Assembly: GCA_004431415.1 (NCBI GenBank) | Contig: QPMI01000514.1 | Location: forward strand, 434,001-498,000 | Length of the DNA stretch: 64,000 nt | Reading direction: 5' to 3' | Source of the DNA: Cyanophora paradoxa CCMP329 | Taxonomy: Eukaryota; Plantae; Glaucophyta | Shown here: positions 5,857 through 30,800 of the stretch, piece by piece | Numbering within the stretch: the first letter of the stretch is position 1 | How the letters are laid out: every line of letters starts with the position of its first letter | Made by a program: the position numbers and the translations under genes | The notes under the pieces: model-generated | Database searches by the model: none | What the model saw: only the letters and a program-made list of their open reading frames with translations | Told to the model about the DNA's origin: nothing

Positions 5857-5879
5857 AATTTATATTACTTTAATGTAAA

Positions 5880-6742: not shown

Positions 6743-7051
6743 ATGGATTTGCTTCGAAAATTATTGGATATGTTCCATCTCAACGTCACCAGCAAATTGA
6801 ATTGTAGTTGCTGCGAGACGACCATTAACCTCGAAATATCGGACACTGAGGGCTCTCGCACCCCAGAAACTCAGGTATCGCCTATTAACACACCCGGGAC
6901 TTCTAGGTCCAATTCTCCATTTACTCGAACTGACTCACCTGTACCTTGGCTTGATGCTGAAGGCCGAAGATTGTCCTGGCCACCCCCAAAGCCGCTGAAA
7001 AGAAAGAAGTCGTTGCTATCAAGTTTCCGAAAGGAAAAGCAGCCAGATTAA
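6743..7051 (+). CDS. Hypothetical 102-aa protein (S/T/P-rich, basic C-terminus)
   Basis: ATG-initiated ORF co-directional with the cassette. No recognisable family. Confidence 0.55.
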   Translation: MDLLRKLLDMFHLNVTSKLNCSCCETTINLEISDTEGSRTPETQVSPINTPGTSRSNSPFTRTDSPVPWLDAEGRRLSWPPPKPLKRKKSLLSSFRKEKQPD

Positions 7052-7056
7052 GTGGA

Positions 7057-7508
7057 TGAGGCCGCACCAGAGCGCTCTTGGGACACGAAGTGCTTCAATG
7101 TACTCATCATTATCGCCTAGATAGAGCTAAACGCTTTTCCTCTGGTTGCTTCAATGTTCTCATCATTTCGCCTAAAATTAACCTAAACGTGCTTCCTCTG
7201 TTAGCTTCATCGTACTCATCTATATCGCCTAGACTATTCTTTCTCGTTGCTCTGCAGACCGCGCTCATGGGGGCAGCGCTCCTCTTCGTCTATTCTAGTT
7301 GTCTCCTCTGCCTTGTATAGTCGTCAGATATTGCTTGGCTTCGACCTAGGGAATCGGATAGTAGACGTAACAAGAGAGCGGGGTAGACGTAACGAGAGAG
7401 CGGGGTTGGAGTGATAGCGGGGTGGACGCTAGGGCTGGTGCAGCGAGAGAGGTGGTGGGCCATCTGGGTGGCGAAGAGGGGTGGGCCACCGCGGTGGGCT
7501 CTCTCTCA
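7057..7508 (-). mobile_element. Solo-LTR-like insert (452 bp) truncating the patatin gene
   Basis: GC-richer than flanks. Ends TGAG...CTCA. Internal ~56-nt (7092-7236) and ~22-nt (7361-7404) tandem repeats, TATA-like TATACAAG on the - strand. Flanks GTGGA/TTTTT do not form a target-site duplication. Confidence 0.5.
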
Positions 7509-7720
7509 TTTTTTGCTGTCAGTTTAGGTTCACCTGGTTTATCAGGATGCCTTATATTCAAACCTATTGCAATGATCCCACCAGTGGAAGTTCCACTCAC
7601 AAGATCCACAAGATCGATTATTCTCCTGCCAGTTCGATTTTCGATTTCTTTTAGCAGCCTGGTTATGATAATGCCCCTTGCACCTCCCCCTGATAAAGAC
7701 AGGCAGATTTTCAAGGGCAT
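7509..7720 (-). pseudogene. 5' fragment of a patatin-like phospholipase
   Basis: LSLSGGGARG oxyanion motif and SGTSTGG nucleophile motif. Homology ends at PKLTAK where the insert begins. The catalytic Asp half is not found beyond the insert. Confidence 0.85.
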
Positions 7721-7763
7721 CTTTTACTTATCAGGAATTTTATAAATCCATATAGTAAAAGCC

Positions 7764-10700
7764 ATGAGCTTCAATTACCCACCAAATCTAGAAACCATTC
7801 AAGATGATAATGCAAGCAGCACCAAGCATGTGAACTTTGATAATATTAAAGTAAAGGGTTCAGTTTCGATTGACCACAGTTCCGATAATTCATCCAAGAC
7901 TCAATCAAGGGAGCATGCTTTATCTGTGAATCAAACCGATCCAGATAAGGAGGAAGTTAGTGTTGCTTTTAGCTTGGGTAATGTGAAAGCAAACCAAGTG
8001 GCAGAGATCAAAGCAACAAGAAGGAGACCTAGGAAACTCAAAACCAGTGGCACTCACCCAGATATACCTTCTAGGTTTGATAGTGGTCGATTGATTTTCA
8101 ATGTTCAAGATGAGCAGGGCAAACAGAACACAGGTTTGCGAATTTACAATGAGGGCAGCACTGCAAAAGCTGAGGTCCCCAAGTATTGCAAGTGGGTCCC
8201 ATTGCCAACACAAATCAGGTCTCCTACACAAATGATGTCTACCCCAAGGATATTACATATGACTTTGCAAGGAATGAGCCTTTTGGGTTCTTTACTCCAA
8301 AAGATGTCCATCAAAAAAAGCCATCAATTACAATCAACAGTAGCCCCAGTCAACCAGTAGCAATCCATTTACATCCTGATCTTGTTGAAATGGATAGGCA
8401 CCTTTTGCCTTTGTATAGCAATGTGAAAGACCTTGGAATTCGAACCAGGCAATGGCGAAATATCCATGGCAGCAATGTGTATGCAAATGGTGAGAAGCTT
8501 GTAAGTGAGAAGACCATAAGAGAGATCTTTGAGTATTATGGACCTGTCCCAGTTCCCTTCCCTCTTCCATGGGATCCACCGGATTTAACACCGAAAAAGC
8601 AACCAGGCAGAGAGTACACAGCAACTGAAGATGTAGCCTTTGGGCAGCATATTGTGAGTTGGGAGCAAGTTCGCAATAAACCTATAATTGAACCCAGAAA
8701 GCAAATAGATGAGCAGTATTTACCTCCTGAAGTCGACATATTAGAGCTTGATGAATATCAATTCGTTCCAGATGAGGAAGAGTATTTACCAGATGGTTTT
8801 GACCCACAAGAATATGAATATGATCAGTTTGATCCCAATGAGGAGGAGATACTACCAGATGGCTTAGATCCACAAGAGTTTGAGTATGAGCAGAACTATG
8901 AACCTGATGAGGAGTATTTGCCAGATGGGCATGATCCACCAGCTGTTGATTATGAGCAACCTTATGAACCCCATGAGGAACTATTACCAGATGGATTTCG
9001 CCCAGAGATTTGGGAATTCTTCCCTGATTGGGAGCAGATCAACAATAAACCAGCCAGATATCCACCAGAGGATCACAACCATGACTGGGATGAGATATTA
9101 GGTAAACCAGAGAAATTCCCACCAGAGGATCACAGGCATGATTGGGGTGATCTGGATGGGATTCCAGATAAGTTTGCAGCAAGCAACCATGAACACACCT
9201 GGGATGAGATCAATGACCAACCAGAATTTGCAAAAGTTGAGCCTCTTGCTACTCTGGGAGTTTCTCTTTACCAGACTTGCAATGTCCCTGAAAGGATCTT
9301 TTTGAATCACCACTATGTTCATGTGAATGGGACACTTGCGAATTCAGCTATGAGAGGACCACTTCATATTAGGACATTACCAGGCTCTTATAATCCACCA
9401 CCTGAACCAGGAGCAACCATACCAAATATCTTTGTGTCAAGCTACATGGAGGCTGACATTCCCACAGATACATTCAGAGTCCCAACAGACCCAGCAACCT
9501 ACCAAAATTACAACTCTGCTATACAGGTTCATGTAGCAGATGTAAGCAGTCTAGATGGATCAAGACCAATGATAGTTTTCAGTCGAGATAAATATTCCTA
9601 TATTCCCATAGTGGGAACTGCAAATGATAACTATGGGAGGGCAGAGCTTGCATGGATCAAAACAGATTATGGTGGGGTTCTTGAAGCCAATCAAAGAATG
9701 GCTGCAAAAAACATACACAATGAGAGCATTTCGAGAGTAGTCACAGAGGATTACCTTACTGCAGTAATCCTTGTTAATTTTGTAACCCTTGCTATGCTTG
9801 ATCAATTTATTACAGAAGCTGAACTTGCAGCAGAACTATCCAATTATCTCCCTCTTGTGGGTGGGACAATCACAGGAAACCTCACAGTTAATAGTAATAT
9901 TTACAGCAGCAATATAGAGACCAGCAACCTAAAAGTAAATGGAATCCTCACAATTGGCTCTTGCAATTTCAATACCATGAATCAGGTTTACGAAGAATGG
10001 TATGATGTCCCACCAAGCTTTGATCCAGCATCAAATATCTCGAACTGCATTTTTGCTTGGAAGGCATCAGGAGTACCAGGTCAATCAGCAATGTATACAA
10101 CTATAGTAAGCAGAGTCCCGAATTCAGTTGTTCCAGACTTGTTTATCTCCGGAGCCAGTTCCTATTACACCAATCCCGAAATCAACAACCAAGTTAGTGT
10201 TTCAAGCCCAACAGGCACTTTTTATGCATATACCTCTGCTACAAGAACTATTGATTTCTCAAATGGGCTTACATTTTTCTTTGTGGGAAAATATCATCCA
10301 ACTGCCTCTTCTATGCAAGTTCACTTGAGACTTTACAGAAGCGCCTTTCCATCACGATATTGTTATTATGGGGCAACATCTTCTACTGCTATTGGAATGA
10401 ACCAGTTCACTATTAATGGAGCATCCCAAACCCGCCCAGTTATAACAGTTCCTTCTTTAATAAATACATGGTATTACACTGACCAAACAATTACTTCCAG
10501 CAGCTACACAGTCGGGTTAAATGGAGTAGATATTGAAACACTTGTAGGAACAAATTATCTACCAGATAATACTGTCAATCATTTCGGATTTGGTAATATT
10601 GTGAATGGTGGTATTTCCGAGTTGATTGTTTTCAATAGGGCTTTGACAACTTCTGAAAAGAATGCTGTGAGGTATTACATTCAACAAAAATATGGATTCA

Positions 10701-13700
10701 CTCATACCCAGACTCTGAATATTTACAGAGGATTAAAAATAACCTCACCTGATACTGTAATAGATTACCTTACAGTTACAAGCAATGCAAATTTACCACA
10801 TCATCCAACCTCTAATGTGGTTCAAGGTTGGATTCAAAATCACACTCACACAAAAGCCCAGATTACAGATTTTGACCACACCCATGCCTGGTCGAATATT
10901 GTAGATAAACCTTTGACCTTCCCTCCCAGTTCTCACAATCACTTATGGGAGCATATCACAGACAAGCCATTGACATTCCCTCCCAGTTCTCACAATCACT
11001 TATGGGAGCATATCACAGACAAGCCATTGACATTCCCTCCCAGTTCTCACAATCACTTATGGGAGCATATCACAGACAAGCCATTGACCTTTCCACCTGT
11101 TGCTCACACTCATGATTATTCCCAGATCACCAACAGTAACCACACTCATACTAAATCAGAGATCACAGATTTTGATCACACACATTTATGGGAGCATATC
11201 ACAGATAGACCACTAACATTCCCTCCTGATTCCCATACTCATGATTATTCCCAGATCACCAACAGTAACCACAGACACCCTTGGAGTGAAATCGACCAGC
11301 AGCCCAGGTTTTCATCAGCAGGCAATATTTTGACAGACTTTACAAATGGTGTGAGTCTCTACCAGAGTAATACCATACCTGAAAGGCTACAACTAAATGA
11401 TTATTATGTCAATCGAAAAGGCATTGATGGAGGGACCACAATGGAAGGTGAATTATACATCAAACAACCAACAAGAATCCAAATGATTTCAGCAGGTGGT
11501 GTTGGGGTGATTGATACCAAACCAGGCATCTTCTTAACAAGTTATTATAATGAGGACATCCCATTGACATCAGGATTACCACCTCTCCCATCTGATCCAG
11601 CAGCATATGATGACAAGGATGCCATTATGCAAGTAAATGTAACAGATGTCAGTGCAACTGATGGCTCCAGACCTAAAATAATATTCAGTCGATCCAAATT
11701 CAATTATGTCCCACTTGCGGGACAACCATCAGATAACTATGGGAAATGCGAAATGTCCTGGATTAAAACATTAGCAGGAGGAGCCTTAGAAGTCAATCAG
11801 AGGATGGCAGCAAAAAACTTACACAATGAGACCCTCTCTGGTGTTGTTACAGATGATTATTTAGAAAACAAAGATTATGTAACAAATACAGAATTACAAT
11901 TAGCTCTTACAGATGTTGTAACAGATACCGAATTAACAGCAGCTCTTGGGAATTATTTACCTCTTACAGGTGGAACTGTAACAGGAACTGTGAATGCTAC
12001 CACTTTACAAATTGGTGGAACCACAATACCAAAAGGTTACGATTTCGACCAATTAGATGTGGTTTCGACAGATAGAAGCGCAAATAATTGGAACTTAGGA
12101 TGGACACCAAGAACCGGACAAACAGGATGTTATACAACACCACAAAATGATGAAGATTGTAGCGCTTGTTGGATGAGGTGGAATGTCCCACAGGAATGAA
12201 AACGTTTTATATTCAAACCTTGTGTTGGTCTAATTGTAGATATTTTGACATCTATGGTCAAACAGCTAATGGTAATCAACATTTCCTTCGGCGTTTAAAT
12301 GTTTATCAAGGTATTCAAGCATCAGTACATGATGGAACACAATCCAGTATACTTTTCATCTCTATTAACTGTGAGTTTTACACAAAAATATATGTTCAAG
12401 GTCGAAAAGGTAGAATCCATCTTACAGGTGTTTTTGGGTGGAGTAGACAGAGGGCAACAGATAATGAGGTTGGGATGATCTCTTGGGATAATATATTTAG
12501 TAAACCATCATTTTACTCAGCCGCAGACCTTCCACAAACCGCAACATGGGCAACAAATGCATGGTTAAAATCAGTAGATGCAGTCGAGCGAATTTGGTTT
12601 GGAAATGGTCAAACTACATATATTCGAGGCTATGAAAATGGCGATGGTGTATCTGTCGAATTTAGAAACTCAGCGGATGCAGCAATCTTAAAATCATATG
12701 GTAACGGTAACTTTTGGGTGAATAATACTATTACAGCATCCACTATTAATGCTACTACCAAACTCCAAATAAACGGTAATGATGTCCCAAAGTTTCACAC
12801 AGCAGATAAAACAGTAGGAGGTATTGCATTTAATAGATGTTCTGAGGGTTGGACATGGGCATGGAGTACAGCATGGGATCCATATTATAATTATGGTTCA
12901 TATGTCCATAATAATCAATCTGATGACGAAACTTCTACCGCTTGGATTGACTTCGATATACCCGATGGATACCACACAGGAACAGCATTTTTAACCTATT
13001 TACCTTGGACTAACTCACGACTTTTTGAAATTTGGGGAGTTAATAGACAAGGGAATGAAGTTTTTATTACATCAGTGAATAGTTATCAACCATACGCCAC
13101 ATCGCCTGATGGTAACCACAGTGGTTTAAATAATGTTCCAATACATCTTGGAAATAGATTCCTCACTATTCGGATTAGACCAAAGATTGGAAGAGTTCAT
13201 ATTATGGGTATTAGTTACATGAAAATTTGGGTAGGAAATAGTTATGGTGGTCACACCGGCTATATTCATTGGAATAACGTTTATAGTAAACCAAATATCT
13301 TAACAGGATCTGTGGGGACTTGGTTTAGTTCAAGTGATGGATATAATCGTATCCATTTCGGTAACCAAACTTCTACATATTTGAAAGGAGGGGGAGATAT
13401 TCCCCTTGTATTCCGAAATGAACAAGATACTGATATTTGTTACATGTATCATGGAGGATGGATGTGGATTGGAGGTTATTTAACACAAGGAAGTGACATA
13501 AGATACAAAACCGATATTAAAAAGATATCCGGCGCTCTTTCAGCAATAGAGAAATTAGAGGGAGTGAGTTTTAAACGAATTGGAAGTGAAAAAGATGGAG
13601 TTAAATTAGGTTTAATTGCACAAGATGTTCAAAAGGTAATACCAGAGGTAGTTAATGTTAAAAAAGACGATGGCTACCTATCTCTTGAATACACAGGTTT

Positions 13701-13794
13701 AATTCCAGTTCTCATTGAAGCTGTGAAGGAGTTGTCCCAAAAATGCAAAGATCTACAGGATCAAATAGACCAAATTAAAAATGTCAAAGTATAA
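7764..13794 (+). CDS. Fibre/spike protein copy 2 (~2,000 aa when frameshifts at ~8177-8183 and ~12186-12191 are corrected) with acidic repeats, HxH repeats, a LamG/concanavalin-like domain, two 'WxNxRxF' domains and an S74-like chaperone
   Basis: Three overlapping ORFs (7764..8360, 8186..12199, 12166..13794) join by single-base additions in short runs. The second junction restores VPxGMK as in copy 1. GISELIVFNRALTTSEKNAVRYYIQQKYG is a typical LamG-like C-terminus. S74 motif from ~13492. Confidence 0.8.
10921..11091 (+). repeat. 3 near-identical 57-nt coding repeats (FPPSSHNHLWEHITDKPLT) within a longer HxH region (~10840-11290)
   Basis: Seen directly in DNA and protein. Confidence 0.95.
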
Positions 13795-13797
13795 TAA

Positions 13798-14103
13798 ATG
13801 GCGACCTATCCTCTTGGTGGAACCACCTATTCTACTGAGCCAGTTGCGCTTTCTTTTGATACAATCACCCTTGTAAACGCATTACAAACAGTTGAAAAAA
13901 CGATTCAGCAAACTAACAAGCTCTCACCAGTTGTAAATGAGTATAAAAACCTCTTGGTTAATGTCCTTGCTCAAGCTGCATATGGTGACCCTGTTGCTAA
14001 ATACAATGAGTGTGATAACAACATTAAAGCAATGACATCCAACCTGCAAGTTCTTTCAACTGTTTACCAATCCCTTGGATCGAATTTAATCACTTTGGCT
14101 TGA
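13798..14103 (+). CDS. Hypothetical 101-aa protein (cassette gene 2, copy 2)
   Basis: Paralog of 4637..4945. Confidence 0.85.
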   Translation: MATYPLGGTTYSTEPVALSFDTITLVNALQTVEKTIQQTNKLSPVVNEYKNLLVNVLAQAAYGDPVAKYNECDNNIKAMTSNLQVLSTVYQSLGSNLITLA

Positions 14104-14142
14104 TGGTAGTTTATTTTTCTTTCCTTCTTAGTAAAAGAAGCC

Positions 14143-14988
14143 ATGGGTGAATATAATCGAGTTCAACTTCCAATATATTCCCTTGGATCCCCTGCAATGC
14201 ATTTTCGCCAGCATGAAGTTAATGATGAGGTTCGTGGTTTAGAATCCACAGAGAGACCCAATTCCAATGGTAACTCCTTTGATAAGAATTCGATTATTCG
14301 AGTTAAAGAGCTGAGAGCTGATAAGAATTCTGGTGTGGTTAAAACAACTCGACTTCTTGTCACCAATGCTAACTTCTTCCAGCCTACAAATGGAGGTCCT
14401 GATGCTTACAGTGTTGCCCTGAAAGCCCTAGATTTCGACAAGAATACTGCTGCTGTTACTGTGAGATCAGGAGGAGCATTTATTGGGGGTGGTTGCAGAG
14501 TGTCAGGTCAACTCTCATCCTCCATTTCGTATAATGATGTCCCAGATACTCTAGAGCAAAATGTGGAAGACCCCCAACGAATTCGATTATATACTCCTGT
14601 CGCACAGCAGCCATTAATTCAATTTTACATTGGATATACTGTTACTCTTGAAAACTCGGAATTAATTGAAGGAACCAAAAGAGTACTGAGAGGTCTTGCG
14701 ATTCCATCTGCAATGCTTTCCCTTTGTAGAGCCAACAACAATCAAGTAGGTCATAAATACTATTTCAATGTTCAGGGATATAATCATTTCGGTTATGGCT
14801 ACTGTGTTTATAATAATAATTTCACCTTTGACTTGTTTGTTACAGATATTGGGTTATATACTATAACTCTTATCGGTTTGAGAACAGATATAGCCGCTGT
14901 ATCAGCTCTTAGAGGTGTAACTCCTGATACTCTTTCAGTTACAGGGTTTTACATGGAGCCAGATATTATTGATGACCCAACCCCATAA
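14143..14988 (+). CDS. Hypothetical 281-aa protein (cassette gene 3, copy 2)
   Basis: Paralog of 5002..5856. Confidence 0.85.
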   Translation: MGEYNRVQLPIYSLGSPAMHFRQHEVNDEVRGLESTERPNSNGNSFDKNSIIRVKELRADKNSGVVKTTRLLVTNANFFQPTNGGPDAYSVALKALDFDKNTAAVTVRSGGAFIGGGCRVSGQLSSSISYNDVPDTLEQNVEDPQRIRLYTPVAQQPLIQFYIGYTVTLENSELIEGTKRVLRGLAIPSAMLSLCRANNNQVGHKYYFNVQGYNHFGYGYCVYNNNFTFDLFVTDIGLYTITLIGLRTDIAAVSALRGVTPDTLSVTGFYMEPDIIDDPTP

Positions 14989-15011
14989 AAGATATATCCC
15001 TTTAATGTAAA

Positions 15012-15848
15012 ATGGCAGAGGCACCCACACCAATAGAGCGAATTATAACACCACAGCTATCATTAGCTGCCCCAGCAAACCATGTTCTGCAGCATGCTAC
15101 ATTTGATGATGTAGAGGGTCTCCCATCCACAGAGGTCCAACCTACAATGAACACCTTTGGTTCCACCCACAAACTGAGATTGCAGGAACTCAGATGTGAT
15201 AAAAATAATGGATTAGTTAAGACAACTAAGCTACTTGTTACCAATGCAAACTTTTCTGCTCATTATGGAGACCCAGATAGCTATGGAGATCCTCTGTCTA
15301 CTTATTCTTTTGAATCTAGGTCTGGAGCTATTAACTGCAAATCGGGGGGAGCTTATATTGGTGATGGTCTTAGGGTTGGTGGGGCTGTTGGAGCGCCTCT
15401 ATTTGTGAATGATCAACCCAATCCCATTGATCCTAACACAAGAATTCGAACCTATGTCCCCAGCATGAATGCCCCATACATTATAAAGATATTCCCCATT
15501 GTTGTAAATGAACAAACAGCAGTAGTAGACTCTCTTGTTGAAATTGGTGACCACTACAAGGTAGTTGTGGATATCCCACCAGATGTATATGCTGTATGTC
15601 AAGTAGAGGGTGGAACTCCTAATTTTGCAGTTGTGATCACCCCATATGATAATTTTGGTATTGCTTATCATGGAGTCAATTTCGGTTTGGAAGACTATCA
15701 GTTTCTGGTTAGAGCCACCAAGTTTGGTATCTACAAGTGTGTATTATATGCTGAGAGAACCGATTTTATTGCAAGGCAGAATACCTATGCTGAGTATTAT
15801 GGGACAAATCGATATTTCCCCATTTTTGGACAGGATACTGCTCCATAA
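15012..15848 (+). CDS. Hypothetical 278-aa protein (cassette gene 4, copy 2)
   Basis: Paralog of 5880..6704. Confidence 0.85.
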   Translation: MAEAPTPIERIITPQLSLAAPANHVLQHATFDDVEGLPSTEVQPTMNTFGSTHKLRLQELRCDKNNGLVKTTKLLVTNANFSAHYGDPDSYGDPLSTYSFESRSGAINCKSGGAYIGDGLRVGGAVGAPLFVNDQPNPIDPNTRIRTYVPSMNAPYIIKIFPIVVNEQTAVVDSLVEIGDHYKVVVDIPPDVYAVCQVEGGTPNFAVVITPYDNFGIAYHGVNFGLEDYQFLVRATKFGIYKCVLYAERTDFIARQNTYAEYYGTNRYFPIFGQDTAP

Positions 15849-15870
15849 GAATATTGGTTATATATAGAGT

Positions 15871-16143
15871 ATGGATAGTAAAACAAAAAAGTTTATTGAT
15901 GCTGCTATGACAGTTCATGGTAAAGATAAATTCGATTACAGTGAGACACATTACATCAAAGCTCAAGAGAAAGTATCTGTGAGATGTTTGCAGTGTAATA
16001 AGGTGATCCTTACCTATCCCTTTAATCATGTGAAGGGATCAGGTTGCAGGGACTGTAACAAAAGAAAGAGTCAAGCACACAGGAAAAGAGCTACTTCATC
16101 AATCAGAGTAGAGTATAGGGATATTTGCATTAGGTTTGACTAG
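15871..16143 (+). CDS. DUF723-like zinc-ribbon protein (stand-alone unit of the type found in viral homing endonucleases)
   Basis: KFIxxAxxVHGxDKFDYSxxxY...VxVRCxxC...PxNHxxGSGCxxC pattern. No nuclease domain follows. Confidence 0.7.
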   Translation: MDSKTKKFIDAAMTVHGKDKFDYSETHYIKAQEKVSVRCLQCNKVILTYPFNHVKGSGCRDCNKRKSQAHRKRATSSIRVEYRDICIRFD

Positions 16144-16166
16144 TTAATTTTTCTAAGGTATTCTTA

Positions 16167-16564
16167 ATGGAGACTAAATACAGAGGCTTTCATGTTATGC
16201 TTGATTACAAGGCTAAATCAGCTATAGCAACAGGTTATGAGCATGTTAGCTTCCTAGGTAATTGGATTATGGGAACCCTTGAACAAGCAGTATTGAGACA
16301 AGGTATTAGGATTGTTCATAAGCATTGTGAGATATTTGATGGCAAACTATCACCTCCTGGTTTTGCATTGGTTCTGCTATTAGATGAAAGCCATTGCACA
16401 GCTCATTGTTATTCCAATGAAGGCATGTTAGCAATTGATATATTCAGTTGTGGTAAAGAAGCTCAGCATAAAACACAAGCAGTTGCAGATGAGATCGATA
16501 AAACAATGAATTTTTAACATTTGAGAAGACTGAGAGACATAAACATGATAGATTCCCGTTTTGA
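16167..16564 (+). CDS. speD: S-adenosylmethionine decarboxylase proenzyme, prokaryotic (class 1B)-type; probable 1-nt frameshift at ~16511-16515
   Basis: LLLDESHCTAHCY..EG.LAIDIFSCG contains the E-S-H autocleavage/pyruvoyl site. Adding one T to the T5 run extends the ORF to ...HDRFPF* at 16564. Confidence 0.85.
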
Positions 16565-16839
16565 TGGGTTTCTATAATGATAAACAGGGTAATTTACCTT
16601 TTTTATTACAATGGCAATCGTTAAAAAAGGATATAATATATCCTTTCCTACAATAGCTTTCTACAATGATTTTCTTTCTACAGTAGCTTTTGTTACAATA
16701 GAATTCTACTGTATGATGTAGCCGAAATATGAATGCACCCTACATTAAGCAATGTCAAGTATTTCGAATACTATTCGATTTCCTTACAATAACACTCAGC
16801 ATCTCCCCTTGATTCCCCCTATTATATTATATTTATATT

Positions 16840-17295
16840 TAAGTGGACTCAAGGTTGACTCATATTAATCGTAAAAGTAGTAATAGTATATGGATTTTGT
16901 TACGAATTCAATGCAAGGGTTGACTAAGTGGGTTGAGTTGACTCAAATTTCACAGGAAATATTTGGGACCTAAAGTTTTCTAAAAAGGATTTCAAAAAAT
17001 GTGTCAACTCCCCCCACTTAGTCAACCCTGACCATAAACAGTAAGGATTTGAGCTAACATGTATCACAAAGTGAACATTTTGAGTCCACTTAGAAGATCC
17101 ACTTTTGAAATCAAAGTTGATTTTGCTTGAAATTTCAAAGTTGATCTAAAAGTGAGTCCACCCTGATTGATTATGGTAACAATGTTGACTAAGTTGACTA
17201 AGTTGAGTCATCTTAAGAAATTCAAGGAGACTAAGAGTTCAAAATGTTTATGAAAAGTGAGTCAACTTAGACCACTTATGGTAACAAAGTTAAAT
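16840..17295. repeat. Subterminal array of GTTGACT/AGTCAAC motifs including a ~30-bp imperfect inverted repeat (~16916-16945 vs ~17000-17029)
   Basis: AGGGTTGACTAAGTGGGTTGAGTTGACTCA versus TGTGTCAACTCCCCCCACTTAGTCAACCCT. TTATGGTAACAA occurs twice. Confidence 0.8.
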
Positions 17296-17329
17296 ATTTA
17301 ATTGATTTAATCGGAAAAGAACATGATTT

Positions 17330-17552
17330 AATCGAATTTATTGATATAATTCCGATTAGATTCATTTAGAATTCAATTAAGATCAATCGAAGTTATTGAT
17401 ATAATTCCGATTAACTACAATTAAGATACAATATCGATTAATCGAGTTTATCGATATAATATCGATTAAATTAATTGAAATTGCATATAAAAATATGCAA
17501 ATTCATGTGAAAATTCAAATAAATTAATCGATTTTATTGATATAACATCGAA
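17330..17552. repeat. Very AT-rich subterminal direct repeats (TTAT(T/C)GATATAA..CGA(T/A)T x4) and a small hairpin TTGCATAT-AAAA-ATATGCAA (17481-17500)
   Basis: Seen directly. Copies at ~17338, ~17393, ~17448 and ~17534. Confidence 0.8.
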
Positions 17553-17629
17553 TCACACATATGAATATTCATATTTTAATCCTGAGGCGGAACGCCGAGG
17601 GATTAAAATATGAATATTCATATGTGTGA
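17553..17629. repeat. Terminal hairpin: perfect 30-bp inverted repeat with a 17-nt GC-rich loop
   Basis: TCACACATATGAATATTCATATTTTAATCC (17553-17582) / GGATTAAAATATGAATATTCATATGTGTGA (17600-17629). The loop contains GGCG-GAA-CGCC. Confidence 0.95.
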
Positions 17630-19235
17630 CGTGCCGCCTGGACTACTTTTCAGTACTAGTGCATCGAGCTTGCACCGCATGCGCAGCACCGGCTGCGCAC
17701 GGCACCCGGCCAGCAGACCAGTTCGCGTGTTGCGCACGACGTGCCGCTTGTCTGCTCAGTCGGCGCCCCGCGTACGCCCTGCGTTGCGCCGCGTGCCTGC
17801 GCCCTTGCCGCCTGCCACCCGGCCAGCAGTCCAGCTAGGTTGCTGGGCACGGCGCTCCGCTGCACACCGCTTGCCGCTCGTGACGGATCAGGCTTCAGTT
17901 TGCGTTGTCGCCCTCTTCATGACCGGCGCCGCTGGCTGCCGCTCACCCCCATGGTCGACTTCCGCCCCGACCCCCTGCAGAAGGCCTGGATCGCCTATGT
18001 TTACGGCAAGCCCTCTGCAGACAGCACCATCATCTTTTAGCCAGCTGTTCAGGGTTAGCGGTAGGCCGTGCGAACACAGTTGATGCGCAGCGTTTTTTCG
18101 CTCAATCTTTCATATACAGTGCGCTCAATCTGGCCGTTCTTTCAGGATTTTCTTTATTCGGTTAGATCGCAGCCTCTGCATAACAGCCCTTTTCTACTCT
18201 TTACAATCATATATAATCTGTCTCTATCTTTACTACTTCAACCTGCCGCGCGCGCTGGGCCGGGGTCGATCTACATCTGCCCCGTGCATGTTCGTGCCAC
18301 TACTACTCTTTCATTAGATCCAGATTCCCCCCTTGCACCCCCGGCGCGCCAAGTCGAAGACGAAGATCAAGATAGAGCTAACAGCAGAACTAGCTATAGA
18401 AGACGTAGTCGCTGGAGGCAGAGGCGGCAGAACGGTAGGAGATGCGAAACGTAGGACACCACTAGAGGGGAGAGTCGAAGCTGGCGGAGTGTCTAAACGG
18501 AATCGAGATTGTAGAGTTGGTAAAACAATGGACGGCTGAAGACTAATCTGAGGAACTGGAGACGACACGAGGAAAGGGGCAGAACTCGGATTCAGACTCG
18601 GAATCGGCAGTATAAGAGGAGGGGCGAAACGCAAGCCAGTAGTGACAGGGAAGGCAGACGTCGACGATGGGGCTGAATTGAAGCCGCTGAACCAGGCAGG
18701 AGAGGCAAAAATAGCGAAGTAGAGAGAGAGAAGGGTACACACGAGGAACGTCACCATACACAAAATACTCGCTGCCAAAAATTATACGGTCTGACGGTCG
18801 CTGAAGATAAAGAGGCGGAACTGCCTGAGGACTAACAGTGAGAGATGGAGGAGGAAGAGGCAGAGCCAACGGCAAAGGGAACGGAATCAAAGGTACAGGA
18901 AAGGCATGGAATACACGAGGAACTGGAAGGTGGAGGGGGCCAGTGCTCCTAGCTAACATCGATGAAGCATCTGATGGAGGTGACGGCAAAACAACTGAGG
19001 GTAAACTAAGTTGAGGTGAAGCGAAGATTGATACAAGACTATCATGAATCAAAGGGGGCCATACAGGAACCGGCGGGCGAGGTGGATCTGGTGGGACAGC
19101 CAGCTGCAGTGGGGGAGCCGAAGGTACAGGAGAGGAAAGCCGCAGGCGCTGAGACACATGTACAGGGGACGGATCGGCATCGGGAGTCAAGGTTGCAATT
19201 GAATTCGACGGAGACCGGGGTGGCGGATTCGTGAT
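17630..19235. mobile_element. Possible degenerate retroelement remnant (TGA..TCA segment ~17627-18313 followed by purine-skewed sequence)
   Basis: Intermediate GC, no typical host introns, TATA-like CATATATAA at ~18208, strong strand skew. No gag/pol motif recognised. Confidence 0.25.
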
Positions 19236-22200
19236 CATGAAACGGAAGCATAATTATGCACAATACATGTACATGCGCGCGCAGCCGCAGGTCCGGGATC
19301 CGCAGCGCGGACCCGGGATATCGATATCGATCGCGATGTCGACGTCGATATCGATATTATAATTAAATATTGATCGGAGGTACTCGGAGCGCGTGCGCGC
19401 TCCGATCCGAATGTCGAGTTTATAATCTATATAGTGTGACCGATCGTGAGGCAGGCGGCGCGGACCCGCGGCCGGGATATCGATACCGATATCGATATCG
19501 ATCGGAGCTCGAGAGGTTTGAATTAAATATTTGGAGAGCGTACGCGCGCGTGCGCATGCACGCGTACCGTGCGGCGTACGTATACATGCATATGGCAGCA
19601 GCAGCCAGCCCTTGCAATTGGCCTGCGCCGCTGCGCGGCATCATCGCCGGCATGTGCATGCGCAGCGCCGCACAACGGCGCACATCATATGCATGCGGCA
19701 CATGTACATGTACATGCATGCGCATATGCCTGAATGAACCCTAGTGAATGAACGCTTCCCTTCAACTGCGATCGCGATCCTCGCGATTTCACCGAGTCAC
19801 TCGTCGTGACTCATGTGACATGCATATATGTGATCATGACTCGGCCCTTAATGGGAGTCGGGGACCGGGGTACAGCGAACGTGTCATTTCGAAGCCGGTT
19901 TCTTTTCGACGGCACCAAAGGCAGCCCTGGCCCGGCTGGCCGGGCTGGCCCCTGGGCCCTGGGGCCACGCCGCCGCGGGCTACATGCGCTTTCTTCGTGC
20001 AAACGCCGGCGCCACTGATCATCATGGCATGAGGCCCGTTGATGAGGGCCGCGATCGATGATCCGAGCTCCGATATCGATTCCGCTACGATACCGATCCG
20101 TGCCGGCCGCCGCCGGGTAGTTGGAGAAGTACCGTAGTACTACTGTAGTAGCCTAGTAGTTTCAAAGTCTTGGAGAGCGGCCGTTCTATAGTACTAGTGC
20201 CATCTAGATCTAAAGCTATCGCCGACCCGCGCGCGGCGCGCCAGCCTCCAGCTGCATCTAGCTATATAGACGCCGACTCGTCGACGAGCTCGCCGGCTCG
20301 AGCATCGCCCTGATCGTCGTCGAGCATCGCGCCTCCCAACTTGCCATTGCAATTGGCGGCAGCTGCAGCCCGCAGATCGCAACTGTAACCGAACCATCGG
20401 TGCGTGCATGCCACTCCATGGCAATGGGAGGCATTGGGAGCTCAAGCGCTAGCATCTATATAGTGGCCGTTTAAGTTCACGTTTAAGTACATATATCATA
20501 GTATGGCAGCTCATTAGTATGTCGCCCGATCAACGAGAGGCGTCGAGAGCCACCCTTAAGCTTGCGATTGGGGACCTCATGGTCAGGGCCATGGTGGCTG
20601 GATCGTGTAAAGTGTTTGCTGGGCCATGGCGCCTGGATCTTGTAAAGTTGACCCGTGCGCTTCCCTTCAGCCGCAGACCATGCATGTATGTTGCGGGATG
20701 GAAGACCTCCGGATCCATGCAGCTGTGCATGCAGATGGCCGTGGTCAGAACGTCTAGAGTCTGCAGCTGCTCGCACAATTGCAACCGCGGGGTACCTCAC
20801 ATGCATATGCCACAACATCGCCAGTTTATCTTTGCTGCTTCCTAGGTAACCCCGCGTGCAGGGCCACAGCGAAACATCCGTGCACGCGTTCGATTCGTGG
20901 TGAATCGAAAGCCTCAACGTCCTCGTCCATTTTCATTCGACAACAGTCGCGAGCTGGAGCGCGACATCCGATGATCGACAGGTAGCCACCGCGCCTTCGG
21001 TCACGGAGGCCTGCCTAGGCCGCCGGGCGCCCTATACCTACACCTAGCTCGAAGCATTATCGCCATCGCGATCGTGTTCCCTGACGATATCGATGTCGAT
21101 ATCGATGTCGACGGGGACAGGTCAAGTTGCAAGCAGCAGGCCTAGGCCCTCGAGCTCGCGCTGCGCGAAACCTGCACGGGCGTGCGTCCGCTCGCCTGTT
21201 CTCTGTTGTCAATTGCAATTTCTCATGTGCATCTCTCTTTTACACGCAGCTGCAGGTTGCCGAGCCTGCTTCAGCGATTGCGACTGCAGCTCGTTCGTAG
21301 CATCCGCAAGGGAGTGCGCCCGCTCGCCTTCAGCTTATGCAAGTGCCTGTCGGTGTCTCATGACCGTGACCATCTGCTTGTTCTCTCTTGCGCGCAGGTC
21401 GCTGCCCCTGCAACCGCGACCGCCGCTGCAGTTAACGTTGGTCCGCCGCGGCGCCTCTCATGATCAGCCGCTGTCTTACTTACGTTGGTACTGATTATCC
21501 GCTATCGCGCGCAGCTTGGAGAGCAGCGAAGCAAGAGATTGTGACGGCACCGGCGGATCTTGATCAGACCGGAGGCCTGATAATGAGGCATCGATATCCG
21601 GAGCAGAGCCCGCAATGGAGCGTCGACGTCTGAGCTGCGGTCTGCACGTACAGGTGCCCGTCCGCATCAAAAATAAATCCAATGATATCGATCAACGTTT
21701 AACAGTTATCGTTCACAACCTGCGGGCTGCTTTAGGCACCCTCGTCCGGATTTCCGGGATTCATTCGACTCACATGCACGTGCAGACACGACTTCGACGT
21801 CGACGGACGCGGCGATTACTGTTCTCCACGCATATGCAGGAGGGGGGCGTGTCAGAGCCGACGTCGCCGGTGCGTTCATACGACTCGCGGGCGTCGACGT
21901 TCGTGCCGAGATGCCCGCTCGAAATAGATGCATTAACGTTAACTATTATCTCATGCGGCGACAGTCTGACGGCCTGCCTCCTCTTTCCTTTTCGTCGCAG
22001 GGTGCCGGCACTCATCGCCCTGGCCGTGGCTTGGAGGACAAGAGGGAGAACAGTGGATCCAAGCGGCGTAAAAGGAATGTCAGCTTGCCGGAGGAGGCCG
22101 CCATGTCTTTGCCGCGATCGGGCGGGCGCCGGCACTATAGCGAGCTGCGGCCGCGGTGGCCATCCACAGCGGCGAGCGACGACGGGAGCTCGCGATTGGC

Positions 22201-24088: not shown

Positions 24089-25840
24089 CTACAAATTCAG
24101 ATGAGACTGCAGAAGAATCAGAGCGGCGAGGGCGGCAGTGTCTGCCTGCGGCGCGCGCGCGTGGCGGGGAGAGGGGGGGGGGGGGGGGGGGGGACGCAGA
24201 GTCAGGGCCGCAAGGAGAACATTCGATCTCGCACATTCGCAGTCAATGCAGAGATTTATGAGGCCGGGAACGGGGGGGGGGGGGGGGGGGGGGGGGGTGC
24301 GGACCTTTAAGACCTGTGAGCAGCCGTCGAGGGCGGTGGGGGGCCCGGCCGCCGCCTGCACGGGCGCCGCGGCGGTGCTTCAGTTACGGTGTCGAGTACA
24401 GAGCACACGCGATCGCAACAGCCCGCGGGGCTTGCGCTTAGAAGCTAGCCAGCGGTGCTAGACAAGCTCGCGGGGGGGCGCGCCTGCAGCTGCGCCCGCT
24501 CTGCGTCACTGAAGCCTCCCTCGGGCCCAATCACGAGCGCCACCTGAGCGGATCTGAGCCGATGCAGGGGGGGCGGGGCGCGCCGGCACCTCGGGAGCGC
24601 TCTTGAGGGCGGGGGCGGCTTCCTGCAGCCTCCGGGGCGCGCCGATGTCGAACCAGAGGCACGCGGGGCCGCCGCCGCCCGCCAGAGCCGAGAGGCCTGC
24701 GGTACTAATGAGCGCCCGGGGGCAAGAGCCGGGGGGGGGGGGGGGGGGGGGGGTACTGGGCCGACCAGGGGCCTCTTCCCTCAGCTCGAGCTCGTAGTAC
24801 CTCATCGACTGCGGCGAACGGGGCGGGGGCGGGGGACAGGGTCAGCTGGGACCAAGCGATGCGCCGTACCCGGGACGCGCCGGGGGGTACACGCACCTGC
24901 CGCTCGGCCTCGTCGCGGATGCGGCGGAGGCGGTCGAAGTCCACGCGCCCGGGGCTGAGGGGGTACGCGCACATCAGGCCGGGGGTACGACCGCGGGGGG
25001 GCGGGGGGTACGGCCGCACCGGGAGCGGTCGGCGCGGTAGAACTGCAGAGCGTCGAGCCCGAGCTCGGCGAGCTGCCAGCGGGGTCCGAGTCGGGCGGGG
25101 GTACGCCAGAGGCGGCCGGTGGGGGGGGGGTACGAGGCGACCTTCTCGACGGCCCACTCAAGGCGGTCCTTTCGGAGGAGCGGGAGCCACACGACCGTGC
25201 GCGGGACGCCGGCCGGCCGAGCCTCCGCATGCTCCTGAGACTCGCTGCGCGGCGCGTTCGTCGGCCGGCGCGCGGCGAGAGATGCAAAGCGGGCCGGCGC
25301 CGGCCCGGCGGCCGCGGGGGCGGACCCGGCGGGGACGAGGGAGACGCGCCGCATGCGCCGGTCGTCGGCGGCGAGCTCAAAGAGGCGCGACCGGCCGCGT
25401 CCGTCGAATCCCTCCACCGCGTCGCCCGCCGCGAGCCGCAGGACGCGCGTCAGGTACGTCTTCTGCTCCGCGTCCAGCTCCACCGCCGCCGTCGATTCCA
25501 GGCTCGCCGGCGGCAGCTTGATGCGCCGGAGCCGCCCTTGCCCGTCCTCCTCCTCGCCCAGACCCTCATCCGCCCCCCGCGCTCGCGCCTGCGCGGCGGG
25601 ACTGACGTGCAGCGGACGCCGCGCGAGGGCCCACCGCGACGGCGACCGGAGCGCCGATCCCGCGAAGCTAGCGACGCCACGCTGCATGCACGCCGTGGTG
25701 ACTATCGGCTTGTCCGCCCTGCAGAATCGGCTGTGCTGTACGGCGCGGAGCGAACGCGGCGCTGTGGGCCTACACGCTGCCAGCGCTGTCCAGATCGCGA
25801 AGAGAGCGGGCCGGTCGCACGGCGCTTGCAGAGGCCGCAT
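24089..25840 (-). CDS. rsmE: 16S rRNA m3U1498 methyltransferase RsmE family (multi-exon, probably organelle-targeted; true start may be the later MQRGVASF)
   Basis: Exons encode YLTRVLRLAAGDAVEGFDGRG, KDRLEWAVEK..ELG, RLRRIRDEAERQ, IGPEGGFSDAE (~24500-24531) and ADTAALAAL. Confidence 0.85.
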
Positions 25841-25848
25841 GGCTCAGG

Positions 25849-27711
25849 ATGGCAGAGGGGTACGCCGCGAATTCAATGGCCGAGGCCGGCGACGACTCCG
25901 GGAACCCGCCGGGCGATGAGGAGGACGGGATTTCCGCGGCGGCGCCGGCAGAGTTCGAGTATGACCCGCGCTACGACGAGGAGGCCGACGTCCCGACGAA
26001 CCGCCCCAAGTACCGCCGCGGCCGCCGCGAGACAGCCGTCAAGGTCTACACCATCGCGCTCGAGTCCAGGCGCGCTGATCGTCCTCGCGCGCCTCGCAGT
26101 CCGCCGAGCCGCTGTCCGCGCAGGTACTTGATCGTGCGCGACGTGCCCGCGTACGGCGTCGTACAAGACCTCATCAAGCTCTTCGCAATCTACGGGCCTA
26201 TCCAGGAGTGCGCGGCCGCCCGGCGCGCCCGGCGGCCAACATCCCAGAGCGAGCGAGCGGCGGGCGCCGGCGCAGGTACCGCCTGCTCGACGACGCGCCA
26301 TGCGAGCAGTTCACGGATGTCTACCGGATCAAATTCGCGACCATCGATGCCGCCCGGTGCGCTCTCGCCGCCGCGGCGCTTCCGGCGCCGCTGCCGCGCG
26401 CGCGCCTGCCACCGAACGGCCTCTCCCAGCGCCGCGAAGCGGAAGATGGACGGGCACAGCTTCTTCGGGAAGCAGCTGAAGGTCCGGTATGCGCCGGAGT
26501 ACGAGACGGTGGAGGAGACGCGCGAGAAGATCCTCGGGCACCGCGACTTCGTCGTCGCCCGCCTCGCCGCCCTCGGCCCGCCCCGCCCCCCCCCCCCGCC
26601 CTACCGCCAACTTTGCGCCGGCTGAACGCTGTCGCGCGTGCACCCCGCAGATCGGGAGGCGTCGCGCGGGCGCGGGGGCGCGGGCCCTTCGAACCAGCGC
26701 GGCGGCGGCTCCTCGTCCTCTTCCTCCGCAGGGGGCCGACCCCAGCAGAGCCTGCCCCGGGCGCCGGCCGCAAGCTCCTCCATGCCCCCTCCGCAGCGCG
26801 TCCGCCCGGAGCCGCCGCAGGCGCCGCCCCGCGCCCTCCCTGGCGTGCAGGCCCCGCCCCGCTCCGCCCTTGAGATGATCCCCCGGCCCACGGAGTGCGC
26901 CGTACCCCACGAGCCCGCCCGGAAAAACGCTCACCGACCGCCGCGCATGCGCAGGCGGAACGTTCGCGCGGCAGCCGCCGCCATAAGGGGCGGGCGGGGC
27001 CGCGGGGCCCCCGGCGCCGGTCTCTTCGGGAGCGTCACCGGACCTCCGGGGGTACAGCCGCGGGAAGAGACCCCGAAGGAGGAAATCGTCGACGTGCGCA
27101 CCCCTCCGCTCGGGCCGGGGTACCCTCCAACTTCGGCGCAGTATTTTCCAAGTGAAGAAATGAATCAGACGGTCCTCAGCATCCGACAGAAGCTCCGGCG
27201 GGTTCGCTTGTACCCCCCCGCTATCGCGGAGTCCCGTACCCCTCGGCGGCGCTGAAGTGCCCTCCGGCAGGTCGAAGGCGCCCCCCGGGGTGACGTCGGC
27301 GCCGGTCTGCCCCGTCAGCCAACCTCCAGCTCCTCCCCGGCCCCCGCCCCCGCCCCCACCCCGGTCTCCGCGTTCTCCCCCGAGCCTTCCCCCACCGGCT
27401 CCTCCTCCTCGTCCGCCCCGACCGCCCCGCCCCTGTACCCCAGCATGGCACCCGACCTGTTCGGCGCTCCCCTGCCCCCCTCTGCGGCCCCCTACGCCCG
27501 CCGCTTCGAGGCCGAGTACGACGTCGACGTACCCCTGCCGTCGTCCTCCCCGCACGCGTACCCCCCCGACTTCCACGCTTCCGCCCCCGCCCCGGCTCCT
27601 GCTCCTCCCCTCAGGCCTGCCTCCGACACGGCCGCCCGGCCCGGAGGAGCGGCGCCCCTACCCTCAGGGCCGCCCGTGCGGCGGGCGCCGGACGGGCGCA
27701 GGCGTATCTAA
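25849..27711 (+). CDS. RBM48: RNA-binding protein 48 (RRM; minor-spliceosome factor), multi-exon
   Basis: RPKYRRGRRETAVKVYTIALESR|YLIVRDVPA...YRLLDD.PCEQFTDVY.IKF..I.AAR.AKRKMD...FFG..L.V.YAPEYETVEETREK matches the RBM48 family signature. Confidence 0.9.
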
Positions 27712-27828: not shown

Positions 27829-30800
27829 CTAAGCCCGCCAGCCCGAGGCGCGCTGGGCAAGCCCGTAGGTGGGGGTTGGGGAGGGCGAGGCGGAGGTGCT
27901 GCGCCGGTAAGGCGACGGCTGCCGCTTCATGTTCTGTCCCAGCGCCCTCGTGAACGTGCCCGACGCCGTCTGAGCGTACGGCGACGTGTACCCCGCCGCG
28001 TACACCGGCGAGCTCGGCTTGTTCAGCGCGGCGGCCGCGGCGGCAGCTGCGGCGGCGGCGGCCGCTGCCGAGGTCGTCGGTAGCGGGCCGGCGACGGTCG
28101 GGCCAGGGATGGTCCCCGCGGTGAGGGGCGTGTAGTTCCAGGGGGCCGGGCCCGGCACGACCCCGGGCGTCCCCGTGCTCCTCCGCAGCGCGTATGCAGC
28201 CTGGCCCATGCTCCCCACCAGCACAGGCGCCTGCCCGACGCACACGGTTAGCCGGAAACAAGGGGGGCGCTGCCGGCGGGCGGGCGGGCGGGCGCACGGA
28301 TTGGGAGCGGGCGACGTTGTCCTGGGGCGTGCCCGGCCGGTTGGCCTGGGAGGGCGAGGGCGGGCGCTGCTGCTGCTGGGCGCCGCTGCTGAAGGCGGGG
28401 GCGGAGCCCTGCCGGAGCATCGACTGGTAGGCGCTGGAGGGGGTCTGGGAGATGGGCGCGGAGGGCGGGCGGCGGGCGAGGGCGGCGGCGGGGGGCGCGG
28501 GGGTCGGGGCGGGCGCCGCCGCCGCGGACCAGGTCGCGGCGGAGGGGAGGGCCGGCGGGCGCCCGCGGAGCCGGGGGCGCCCCAGCGGAGTAGGACGGGG
28601 CGGGGAGAAGGCGGAGGCGTACGCCGGGGAGGCGGCCGCGGGGCTCGGGACGGCCGGCGCGGAGGAGCGGCGGGGGTGCCGGGGACGGCGAGGGCGGCCG
28701 CGGGCTCGTGCCCCTCGCGGGCGGAGCGGCGGCGGCGGCCGCCGCCGCTGCCGCCACCTCTGCGCGGTCGCGGGGCGGGCCGGCGGAGGCTGCGCGGGCG
28801 TCAGCGGCCAGCGGAGGGTGCGGGGGCGCGGGCGCGGGGCCGCACGCACCGGAGCGGACGGTGCGCTTCTTCTTCTTGGTGCGCATGCCGCGCGGGGGCG
28901 TCTGCGGGCGGCCCGACCCGGCCGACCCCGGCCGGTCGTCCGGGCCCCCGCCCAGCGGGATCAGCGTCCCGCTGTCGGTGCGCATCATGCCGCCGCGCCC
29001 GCCCTCGCTGGTGTCGAGGGGGCCGTTGGTGGAGGGGTACGTGGCGCCCAGCTCGCCGTCGTCGTCGGCGTCGGCGAGCACGACCGAGCCGCGCTCGCGG
29101 GCCGTCCCCGCCGACATCGGCCGCCCCGCCTGCCGCTCGCCCCCCGACGAGGGCCCCGCCGCCCCGTCCAGCCACGCCTCCGTCTTGCGGGGCGGGGCGC
29201 CCTTCGGCAGGACCCCGGCCCCGGAGTCCCGCAGCGGCCGGATCGTCCCGTTCTGCCCCGCAAGCCGCGCCGGTATCCTGTACTCCTCTTCGCTCGCCTC
29301 CTCGTCCTCCATGTCTCCCTGCGGGCGGCGCGCGTCAGGCGCGCTGCGCAGCGGCGGCCGCGCGCGGGCGAGGCGAGGGCCGCGCACGTCGTCGTCGTCC
29401 TCTTCCTCCTCCTCCTCGGCGGCGGCCGCGGCGACGGCGGCCGCGGCCGCGGGCGGAATGGCGGCGCGGGCGGCCGTCGCGGGGGCGTGCCGGGCCGCGA
29501 GCCAGTGCCCGTCGCCGGGACGCGGTACTCGGCCCCCGGGAGGCGTCCAGCACCACGGTCCGCTGCGCCGCCTGCGCCTGCGCCGCGGGGGCCGGCGGTG
29601 GGGCCGGGGCCGGCGGCGCCGCCTCGATGGCGCGGCGGCCGCCGCCGCCGTTCTCCACAAGCTCGGGCCGCATCTGGGCGAGCGGGACGTGGTTCCCGTT
29701 GGCGTCCAGTACGATGCGGATCACGGGGCGCTTGGGCCAGCGCGTGTTGATCTTCGCGGGCCTCGAGAGGCGCCGCCGGAAGCGCCGCGGGTAGTAGTCC
29801 TCGTAGTCCACCTCGCTGCTCGGGTCCGTCTCGGAGCCGCTCGCGGGGTCGTCCGCGTTGAACGGGCAGCTGGTGTAGTCCAGGCCCGGCGGCCGCACCG
29901 GCCGCTGCAGCCGCACGCCGGGCGCCGGCGTCCGCGCGTCGATCCACGTGAGCCGCACCCGCGCCGGCGGCAGGTGCGGCGAGCGCGCCGACCGCATCTG
30001 CTCCTCCGTCACGCAGTCCAGCGCCGAGAACGAGTTGTAGAACTGCGAGGGCGAGGAGAGGTCGCCGTCAGCGGGCGACGGGTGGCCGCTAACGCTCCTG
30101 CGGGAGGGCGGACCGTGTGTTCGAGGACAACAGTCTCGTTCATCTCCTCTTCCGCCCAGTCGGGATCCTTGAATTCGTCGTAGCTAACCTCGCCAGCCTG
30201 GATTCTGCGCGGCACGGGCGGCTCAGGCGGCGGCGGCCGCTCGCGCGATAATCCCCACGGTCCCGCACCGCCGCTCGAGGATCTTCAGCTGCCGCAGGAA
30301 AGCAGGCTTGAGCTGCATATCCGGCCGCTTGGCGCGCACGTAGTCCAGACTCCTCTGCAGGTCGCGGAAGAAGGTCTTCATGAGGTACGCAACGATCACG
30401 CAGCAGGAGCGCGCTGCAGACGAGCGAAGTTAGTTGTACGCGGTTAGATACAAGCTTAGCTAAGGACATACAGATGCCGTGGAGCGAGTGGATGAGGATG
30501 CTCTCGCCCATCTCCTGCGCCTCTTTTACGAAGGCGCAGACCTCGTTCAGAGTCTTGTCCTGCGTTGAAAAAGAACGTTTAGATACGTGCCTGCGCGACA
30601 TAAAGGAAACGCAAGGGACCTTGCTGTCGAGAACGACTGTGATGTCCGAGTCCGCCCAGCGGTAGGTCAGGTACTTGACGCCCAGGCTCTGGAAACGGTT
30701 CGCCACTTGATGCCCGGCGCAGTTTATGATATGGCTGATCTTGTTCGCCAGCACGAACGCCAGGTCTTGCGAGGACTCGCTCGTGCCCAGAAACAGCCCA

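Follow-up and report, generated by a model that had tools for sequence, protein, structure and literature searches.

The viral element at the left of the analysed window (the whole 64-kb stretch of Cyanophora paradoxa DNA) ends at position 17627 in a hairpin-forming palindrome, and the recurrence of this last base beside different host flanks well supports the hairpin as a programmed viral end. Palindrome-tipped ends of this kind were described in a 2026 preprint on Halocafeteria seosinensis (10.64898/2026.07.28.741278), and the end reported here is another instance. As in that host, the palindrome lies at the extreme end of the element and directly against host DNA, with one odd junction at 17592. 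The hairpin is quite probably a terminus of the PLV type.

A perfect inverted repeat of 30 bp with a 17-nt loop spans positions 17553-17629 and cannot be extended outwards. The runner-up among the perfect stems in the 64 kb (loop of up to 40 nt) has 13 bp, and the longest stem in base shuffles (n = 100) of the 1.1-kb AT-rich tail of the element has 12 bp. The DNA fold of the 201 bases from 17480 to 17680 has an energy of -49.8 kcal/mol (z -9.3), which was equalled by 0 of 200 shuffles. Both arms contain a 16-bp palindrome (17559-17574 and 17608-17623), for which exactly two matches were found in the 64-kb window with up to two mismatches allowed, compared to 0 expected from 100 shuffles. The loop contains the motif GGCG-GAA-CGCC at 17586-17596. 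The perfect AT-rich stem with its 17-nt loop, the palindrome in each arm and the loop motif had been described in an earlier note made from the sequence alone, and all of them were borne out by the inverted-repeat search and the fold.

Judged by the end common to the copies, the element's own hairpin comprises 73 bases (28 + 17 + 28; 17555-17627). It is composed of an inner arm of 28 bp (17555-17582, containing the first 16-bp palindrome), the asymmetric 17-nt loop with the GGCG-GAA-CGCC mini-hairpin (17583-17599) and an outer arm (17600-17627), the last base of which was identified as the terminus from contig ends, contig divergence and a depth model. The two bases at 17628-17629, which lengthen the stem to 30 bp here, are probably host bases with which the target site begins, paired by chance or owing to target bias; a virus-free paralogue in sequencing run X4 aligns from 17628, and another junction differs at this base. 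The earlier placement of the hairpin at the very end of the element is therefore retained, with the end at 17627 and not at 17629. The G + C content per 50 bases rises from 18-40% before the junction to 62-76% after it. GC-rich DNA thus starts right after the hairpin as had been noted, but the adjoining 17628-19250 is multi-copy DNA with 56% GC and not plain single-copy host DNA, compared to 72% GC at 22001-64000. A search of 16400-20000 against Rfam resulted in no match, and a 22-base pattern of the arm had no match in IMG/VR.

The stretch is present in 20 of the 24 public sequencing runs listed, all of which derive from one organism and consist of assembled contigs. Five runs (X1, X2, X4, X15 and X16) were aligned to the window, of which X15 and X16 are contig sets of low depth. 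The element is present in tens of copies. Relative to the single-copy contig at 19362-20000, the depth of single viral contigs is 28-43-fold in X1 and 28-38-fold in X4, which gives only a rough copy number owing to GC bias and possible free viral DNA. Across 17626-17633 the summed depth falls from 11531 to 95 in X2 (about 120-fold) and from 30878 to 786 in X4 (about 40-fold), and the depth model over the candidate last bases 17626-17629 gave the best fit for 17627 in both runs. In X16, 17627 is the last base of the viral contig and the starting point of two contigs whose flanks differ, and in X15 the junction is bridged by one contig (contig 13) with 558 viral and 807 flank letters. In total, the same hairpin is joined to at least five clear host flanks besides that of the window, with one more possible, and no copy continuing into further viral sequence past the hairpin was found among the contigs of the aligned runs.

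The proposal that other copies end at the same base beside different flanks was thereby confirmed. The earlier note had also named, in advance, viral sequence beyond the hairpin and a chimeric assembly as the two findings that would overturn its reading; no such sequence was seen, and a chimeric assembly is ruled out, as independent runs show the same end beside other flanks. A single X2 contig (17602-17760, no differences) covers the junction of the window itself; with only 26 viral letters, it falls short of the 31 letters applied as the rule for bridging. No contig lies over this junction in X4; contig sets of this kind may lose short connections between deep nodes. In both X2 and X4, one contig passes into non-viral DNA at 17592, within the tri-loop. 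It may come from a remnant, from an insertion in the loop or from an inverted copy that was cut at its tip. That a genome was nicked about 30 bp from its tip and joined to the chromosome, as the note supposed, is still the simplest route, but the cut lies 28 bp from the loop and, because it does so identically among the copies, looks programmed and not like a chance nick.

The insertion was received by a low-copy GC-rich host repeat (17628-17900). Virus-free paralogues of this flank were detected in three of four runs (X15, X2 and X4, not X16), where they align from 17628-17630 and continue leftward into non-viral DNA. A separate high-copy repeat outside the virus follows at about 17900-19220 (ends approximate), represented by single contigs at 54-113 times the single-copy depth; it is purine-skewed and has no Pfam or Rfam match. 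In the paralogue that aligns from 17628, a single sequence taken here in place of the true empty site, the base before the junction differs from the element's last base, and for this reason no recombination core is common to element and target.

This result bears on the possibility that a tyrosine recombinase integrated a circular virus, as in the Ectocarpus phaeoviruses, and left an attR site in which the inverted repeat is the arm bound by the recombinase. In the phaeoviral attP, a 2-base core is accompanied by AT-rich inverted repeats (PMC13236599), and several flanks open with the same two to four bases as that of the window. Flanks like the window's are over-sampled, however, since only pieces of about 30 or more aligned letters were counted. 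For two further flanks with four bases in common, 0.2-0.9 are expected among 30-120 junctions (P 0.02-0.22), which is not clearly above chance, and the excess of flanks starting like the window's is largely explained by selection through alignment length. In addition to the paralogue without the element's last base, one fully bridged junction differs from the window at the first flank base, 17628. Among 156 glaucophyte elements, an rve integrase is recorded for 85 and a tyrosine recombinase for none in Table S6 of PMC12220804. An att site is thus very unlikely.

Length differences of exactly 6 bases between copies were observed at 16143, 17652, 17675, 18102, 18391, 18657, 19101 and 19193. Several of them form short palindromes, in which the region 19250-22000 is likewise rich, and they may have been left by 6-bp target-site duplications or by excisions. 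Short GC-rich introns are present in the host part, and together with its 72% GC this is circumstantially consistent with the Cyanophora genome, which is described as intron-dense with 67.6% GC (PMC6704402). At 45077-45944 and 59504-60096, about 14 kb apart, three to four inverted arms of 40-113 bp with 88-96% complementarity were found, which may belong to an inverted duplication or a dispersed element. Host genes within 24977-26900, 30143-31030 and 62433-62897 show an RsmE-type PUA domain, a weak match to dual-specificity phosphatases and ankyrin repeats. The intron-rich gene beside the RsmE-type PUA gene resembles that of an RNA-binding protein.

The orientation of the asymmetric loop separates the models of how the end is formed: an integrase nick 3′ of the hairpin leaves the loop one way round, whereas resolution of the pox/parvovirus type leads to a 50:50 mixture. 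Compared with the loop of the window, an inverted one would be changed at 9 of 17 positions, among them the two bases adjoining the outer arm. Two X16 records (3 and 4) begin at 17598 with 1 and 0 differences and both have the orientation of the window. All three readable junctions (the window and the two of X16) are consequently oriented alike, which has a chance of 0.25 under a 50:50 mixture. The same orientation is present in the internal-side path of X16 (record 2), and no loop variants are listed in any of the four runs X2, X4, X15 and X16, where contigs can drop or merge variants. Contig 13 of X15, with 11 differences and the same flank as record 4 of X16, was left out of the count. The single orientation speaks weakly against the flip-flop of pox- and parvoviruses.

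Telomeres maintained by resolution, as in pox- and parvoviruses, yield two loop isomers. A hairpin telomere of this type would account for a perfect AT-rich stem with an imperfect loop that lies flush with the junction, and the contig at 17592 in X2 and X4, if read on the other strand, could then stem from a copy with inverted loop that was cut at the tip. In a protist giant virus, the terminal hairpins of the two ends are reported to be slightly different (PMC12747079). Against such a telomere stand the uniform orientation in the readable junctions and in the internal-side path, the lack of loop variants in the four runs and a gene set that fits elements of PLV size; a remnant or an insertion into the loop would account for the 17592 contig just as well. 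We regard this explanation as rather unlikely, and the likeness to the telomeres of pox-, asfar- and chloroviruses drawn in the earlier note is not supported by the genes and the loop orientation. A protelomerase target of the N15 telRL type is a perfect palindrome without spacer that lies internally in the integrated genome; this candidate is ruled out by the 17-nt asymmetric loop and the terminal position.

The viral part of the window (1-17627) has 39% GC, is intron-free and gene-dense. It contains two fibre blocks on the forward strand, about 9.1 kb apart, of which block 1 (1-6704) is open at the left edge of the window and 72-82% identical to block 2 (8390-15848). Each block consists of a long fibre ending in Peptidase_S74, an ORF of 101-102 aa and two paralogous ORFs of about 280 aa. 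In block 2 these are a repeat-rich fibre (ORFs of 1269 and 532 aa) with a C-terminal Peptidase_S74 identified by Pfam, an ORF of 101 aa and two paralogues of 281 and 278 aa. Tail-fibre repeats were found in the fibre ORFs with PHROGs, and both fibre genes are split in two ORFs (near 2690 and near 12195). The doubled block may result from a tandem duplication in one large element or from two nested copies. A truncated patatin-like phospholipase is encoded on the reverse strand at 7346-7720 (Pfam E 4e-11). In place of its 3′ part a short GC-richer, repeat-containing stretch was observed (7080-7240 and 7346-7500), which is possibly an insertion in the virus. Further to the right, the forward strand encodes a zinc-ribbon piece of 90 aa as in HNH-type homing endonucleases (15871-16143; PHROGs 681/559, E 3e-9 and 3e-8) and, as the last viral gene, an S-adenosylmethionine decarboxylase (AdoMetDC, PF02675; 16167-16517; Pfam E 5.9e-11), which in this copy is shorter than its relatives of 130-200 aa.

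The gene is followed by a tail of 1.1 kb (16518-17627) with 30% GC and no ATG ORF of 50 aa, which is a candidate terminal inverted repeat. It contains a second inverted repeat (16916-16950 / 16995-17029) and four degenerate AT-rich direct repeats of about 52 bp with a spacing of 55, 55 and 86 (17327-17574; repeat family D1), which likely serve as an origin or a protein-binding array. An X15 contig aligns from 16798 and has unrelated sequence before this position, and X1, X2 and X4 show a joint at 16669-16800; the two may mark the inner boundary of a terminal inverted repeat or a subtype difference. Doubled depth is predicted for a repeat present at both ends but was not found: the depth was 2128 at 17144-17486 compared to 3238 at 16291-16478 in X1 and 3574 compared to 3947 in X4, a comparison that is blurred by AT bias and subtype mixtures.

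In the 17.6 kb within the window, no major (double jelly-roll) or minor capsid protein, A32 packaging ATPase, polymerase or integrase was detected (15 ORFs searched against Pfam and 11 against PHROGs). The element has the traits of endogenous PLVs in being AT-rich (39% vs. 72% GC), intron-free, gene-dense and present in many copies and in containing S74 twice. S74 fibres are described as ubiquitous in PLVs and patatin is mentioned for glaucophyte PLVs in PMC12220804. According to Table S6 of the same source, AdoMetDC is present in 66, lipase in 89 and S74 in 37 of the 156 glaucophyte elements, and replication genes are represented by pPolB (49), D5-type primase-helicase (40) and SF1 helicase (34). 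Outside the glaucophytes, only three cryptophytes among the 19 host groups of the table have AdoMetDC, and these have 0, 0 and 1 lipases. The gene set of two S74 fibres, patatin and AdoMetDC fits glaucophyte PLVs and not a genome of pox- or chlorovirus size, and by gene content the element likely belongs to the glaucophyte PLV group of PMC12220804. It may be larger than a usual PLV or consist of two nested copies, because 17.6 kb with fibre genes is much for a PLV of 15-30 kb.

Protein searches revealed two relatives of the 278-aa protein (on short contigs), eight of AdoMetDC and five of the 281-aa protein; for an ORF of 198 aa no relative was obtained. In IMG/VR, searches with the 281-aa and 278-aa proteins and with their alignment found no relative, and the AdoMetDC relatives (11 loci) have in common with the element only AdoMetDC itself, plus the zinc ribbon in one case. 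Two candidates were rejected: metagenome locus L001 is a chance match in a bacterial gene, and the 22-bp inverted repeat of locus L005 lies internally in a giant-virus bin. Viral clusters were retrieved from the ESM Atlas at 0.93 with a low recognition score and serve as a lead only. A tblastn search of the S74 fibre against phages returned 1345 records, all below 60% identity and none covering 80%, which gives no sign of a prophage identity.

The standard PLV capsid profile is matched by only 2 of the 156 glaucophyte elements (PMC12220804, Table S6), and insertions related to mriyaviruses (Mriyaviricetes) are reported from a glaucophyte assembly (10.1101/2025.04.19.649669). For these two reasons the element may be one of the NCLDV-like PLVs, among which genomes with rve and HUH together are known (10.64898/2026.06.19.733378). 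In a Mriyavirus-like PLV, the stem-loop could be an origin or terminator that is cut by an HUH endonuclease, with the end of the strand captured in the chromosome. Besides the rarity of capsid matches and the glaucophyte insertions, this is favoured by the Zora-group genomes, of which about half encode HUH and 57% rve (10.64898/2026.06.19.733378). However, no HUH gene is found in the part of the element within the window, the end lies at the stem base and not in the loop, and no CTRR end of the Helitron type follows the hairpin at a distance of 10-12 bases. In rolling-circle origins the nick is usually in the loop, and Helitron 3′ ends have a short GC-rich hairpin 10-12 bases upstream of the CTRR terminus. 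An HUH signal is quite unlikely; a Helitron 3′ end is ruled out, as the hairpin extends right up to the end (TGTGT).

The mechanism that we favour, and consider reasonably probable as a whole, is that of a terminal palindrome of an endogenous PLV which would fold back when free and be joined to the chromosome by an rve integrase. It combines the model of the Halocafeteria preprint with that of the earlier note. Beyond the palindrome as a fixed terminus, we infer each of the steps. The element would be a PLV whose genes for capsid, packaging ATPase and rve integrase lie left of the window. Once a single strand has been displaced or excised, its 3′ arm (the last 28 bases) would pair with the inner arm and thereby provide a 3′-OH primer, from which a non-protein-primed polymerase or primase-helicase would copy the genome, leaving a closed hairpin end. 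The integrase would nick the strand exactly at the stem base, after 17627, and the 3′-OH would be transferred to host DNA with a staggered cut, after which host repair would unfold and copy the 73 bases. A nick at the stem base would keep the loop in a single orientation, whereas in parvovirus-type resolution the nick is on the other side of the hairpin and the loop is inverted in each round. An end fixed to the base, the lack of a core shared with the target and a single loop orientation are predicted by this mechanism and agree with the observations. The route through the telomere itself, which the earlier note presented as new, has precedents in the terminal palindromes beside TSDs that are already known from rve-integrase virophages and PLVs (10.64898/2026.07.28.741278).

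As an alternative, the Halocafeteria authors put forward that such a palindrome is a frozen accident, made by one ancestral fold-back repair and since copied passively in the terminal inverted repeat without any folding (10.64898/2026.07.28.741278). The single loop orientation is compatible with simple copying. On the other hand, the stem stays perfect, with at most one difference over 17490-17627 in X16, while the copies differ at many places in the genes, and similar ends are reported from unrelated virus groups (10.64898/2026.07.28.741278), which makes passive copying highly improbable.

More tentatively, and with considerable doubt, the element can be seen as a mid-size protist virus with closed hairpin ends, the rve integrase of which acts on the closed telomere, so that integration itself would resolve the telomere. 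The nick would be set at the base of the 28-bp stem and the 3′ end joined to the host with the loop orientation kept, and the unfolded palindrome would later serve as excision point and primer. If true, this model would be directly testable via the tens of copies in a culturable alga, with the asymmetric loop recording the orientation. For the integration of a PLV by its terminal palindrome, the value of the locus likewise lies in the combination of many copies with an asymmetric loop, by which a model of replication and integration becomes countable.

The copying of Polinton ends is explained by a protein-primed polymerase, which is missing from most PLVs and virophages, and how these replicate and integrate is an open question. 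AT-rich fold-back ends with subterminal direct repeats, which prime or close a linear genome, are known from the telomeres of poxviruses, asfarviruses and chloroviruses and from the palindromes of parvoviruses. To our knowledge, these ends occur as two loop isomers and are not subject to integrase-mediated integration. The end described here is similar in its predicted AT-rich fold-back structure with subterminal direct repeats, but differs by the one orientation in three of three junctions and by being a precise integrated end in many copies. The endogenous phaeoviruses of Ectocarpus are likewise integrated algal DNA viruses with inverted repeats at the junction, for which hairpin telomeres were proposed in the free form (PMC13236599). 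Their telRL palindrome, however, is internal and a tyrosine recombinase acts at a CC core (PMC13236599), whereas here the palindrome is terminal, the loop asymmetric and no core is in common.

With the PLV-like elements of glaucophytes, i.e., Cyanophora paradoxa, the element shares AdoMetDC, lipase/patatin, S74 fibres and HNH-type genes as well as the AT-rich composition within a GC-rich, intron-dense host (PMC12220804). The words "hairpin" and "palindrom" do not occur in the main text of PMC12220804, and its supplementary tables hold no per-element TIR/TSD rows for the glaucophyte host. Palindromic ends are not discussed in the main texts of PMC10120064 and PMC11161782 either. A search for Cyanophora paradoxa together with endogenous viruses by name gave no match, and no description of hairpin ends of glaucophyte elements was found in the literature covered, which was mostly open-access, with preprint supplements outside its scope.

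The closest counterpart is provided by the virophage subtypes 1, 2, 5 and 6 and the PLV subtype 4 of Halocafeteria seosinensis, which have palindromes in their TIRs beside TSDs (10.64898/2026.07.28.741278). In the preprint these palindromes are tied to non-pPolB replication and to particular rve integrases, and hairpin priming of viral DNA replication is proposed, not shown (10.64898/2026.07.28.741278). In both systems a palindrome forms the tip of an AT-rich integrated small DNA virus, against host DNA and in many copies. The Halocafeteria palindromes (52 nt in subtype 5, gap limit 10) are known from both TIRs, together with the TSD and the rve and non-pPolB genes, whereas the end described here has 28-bp arms and a 17-nt asymmetric loop with a GAA mini-hairpin and is known from the right end only. 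Beyond the preprint, it adds a likely new host lineage, an end that is exact to the base across copies and an asymmetric loop whose orientation can be scored.
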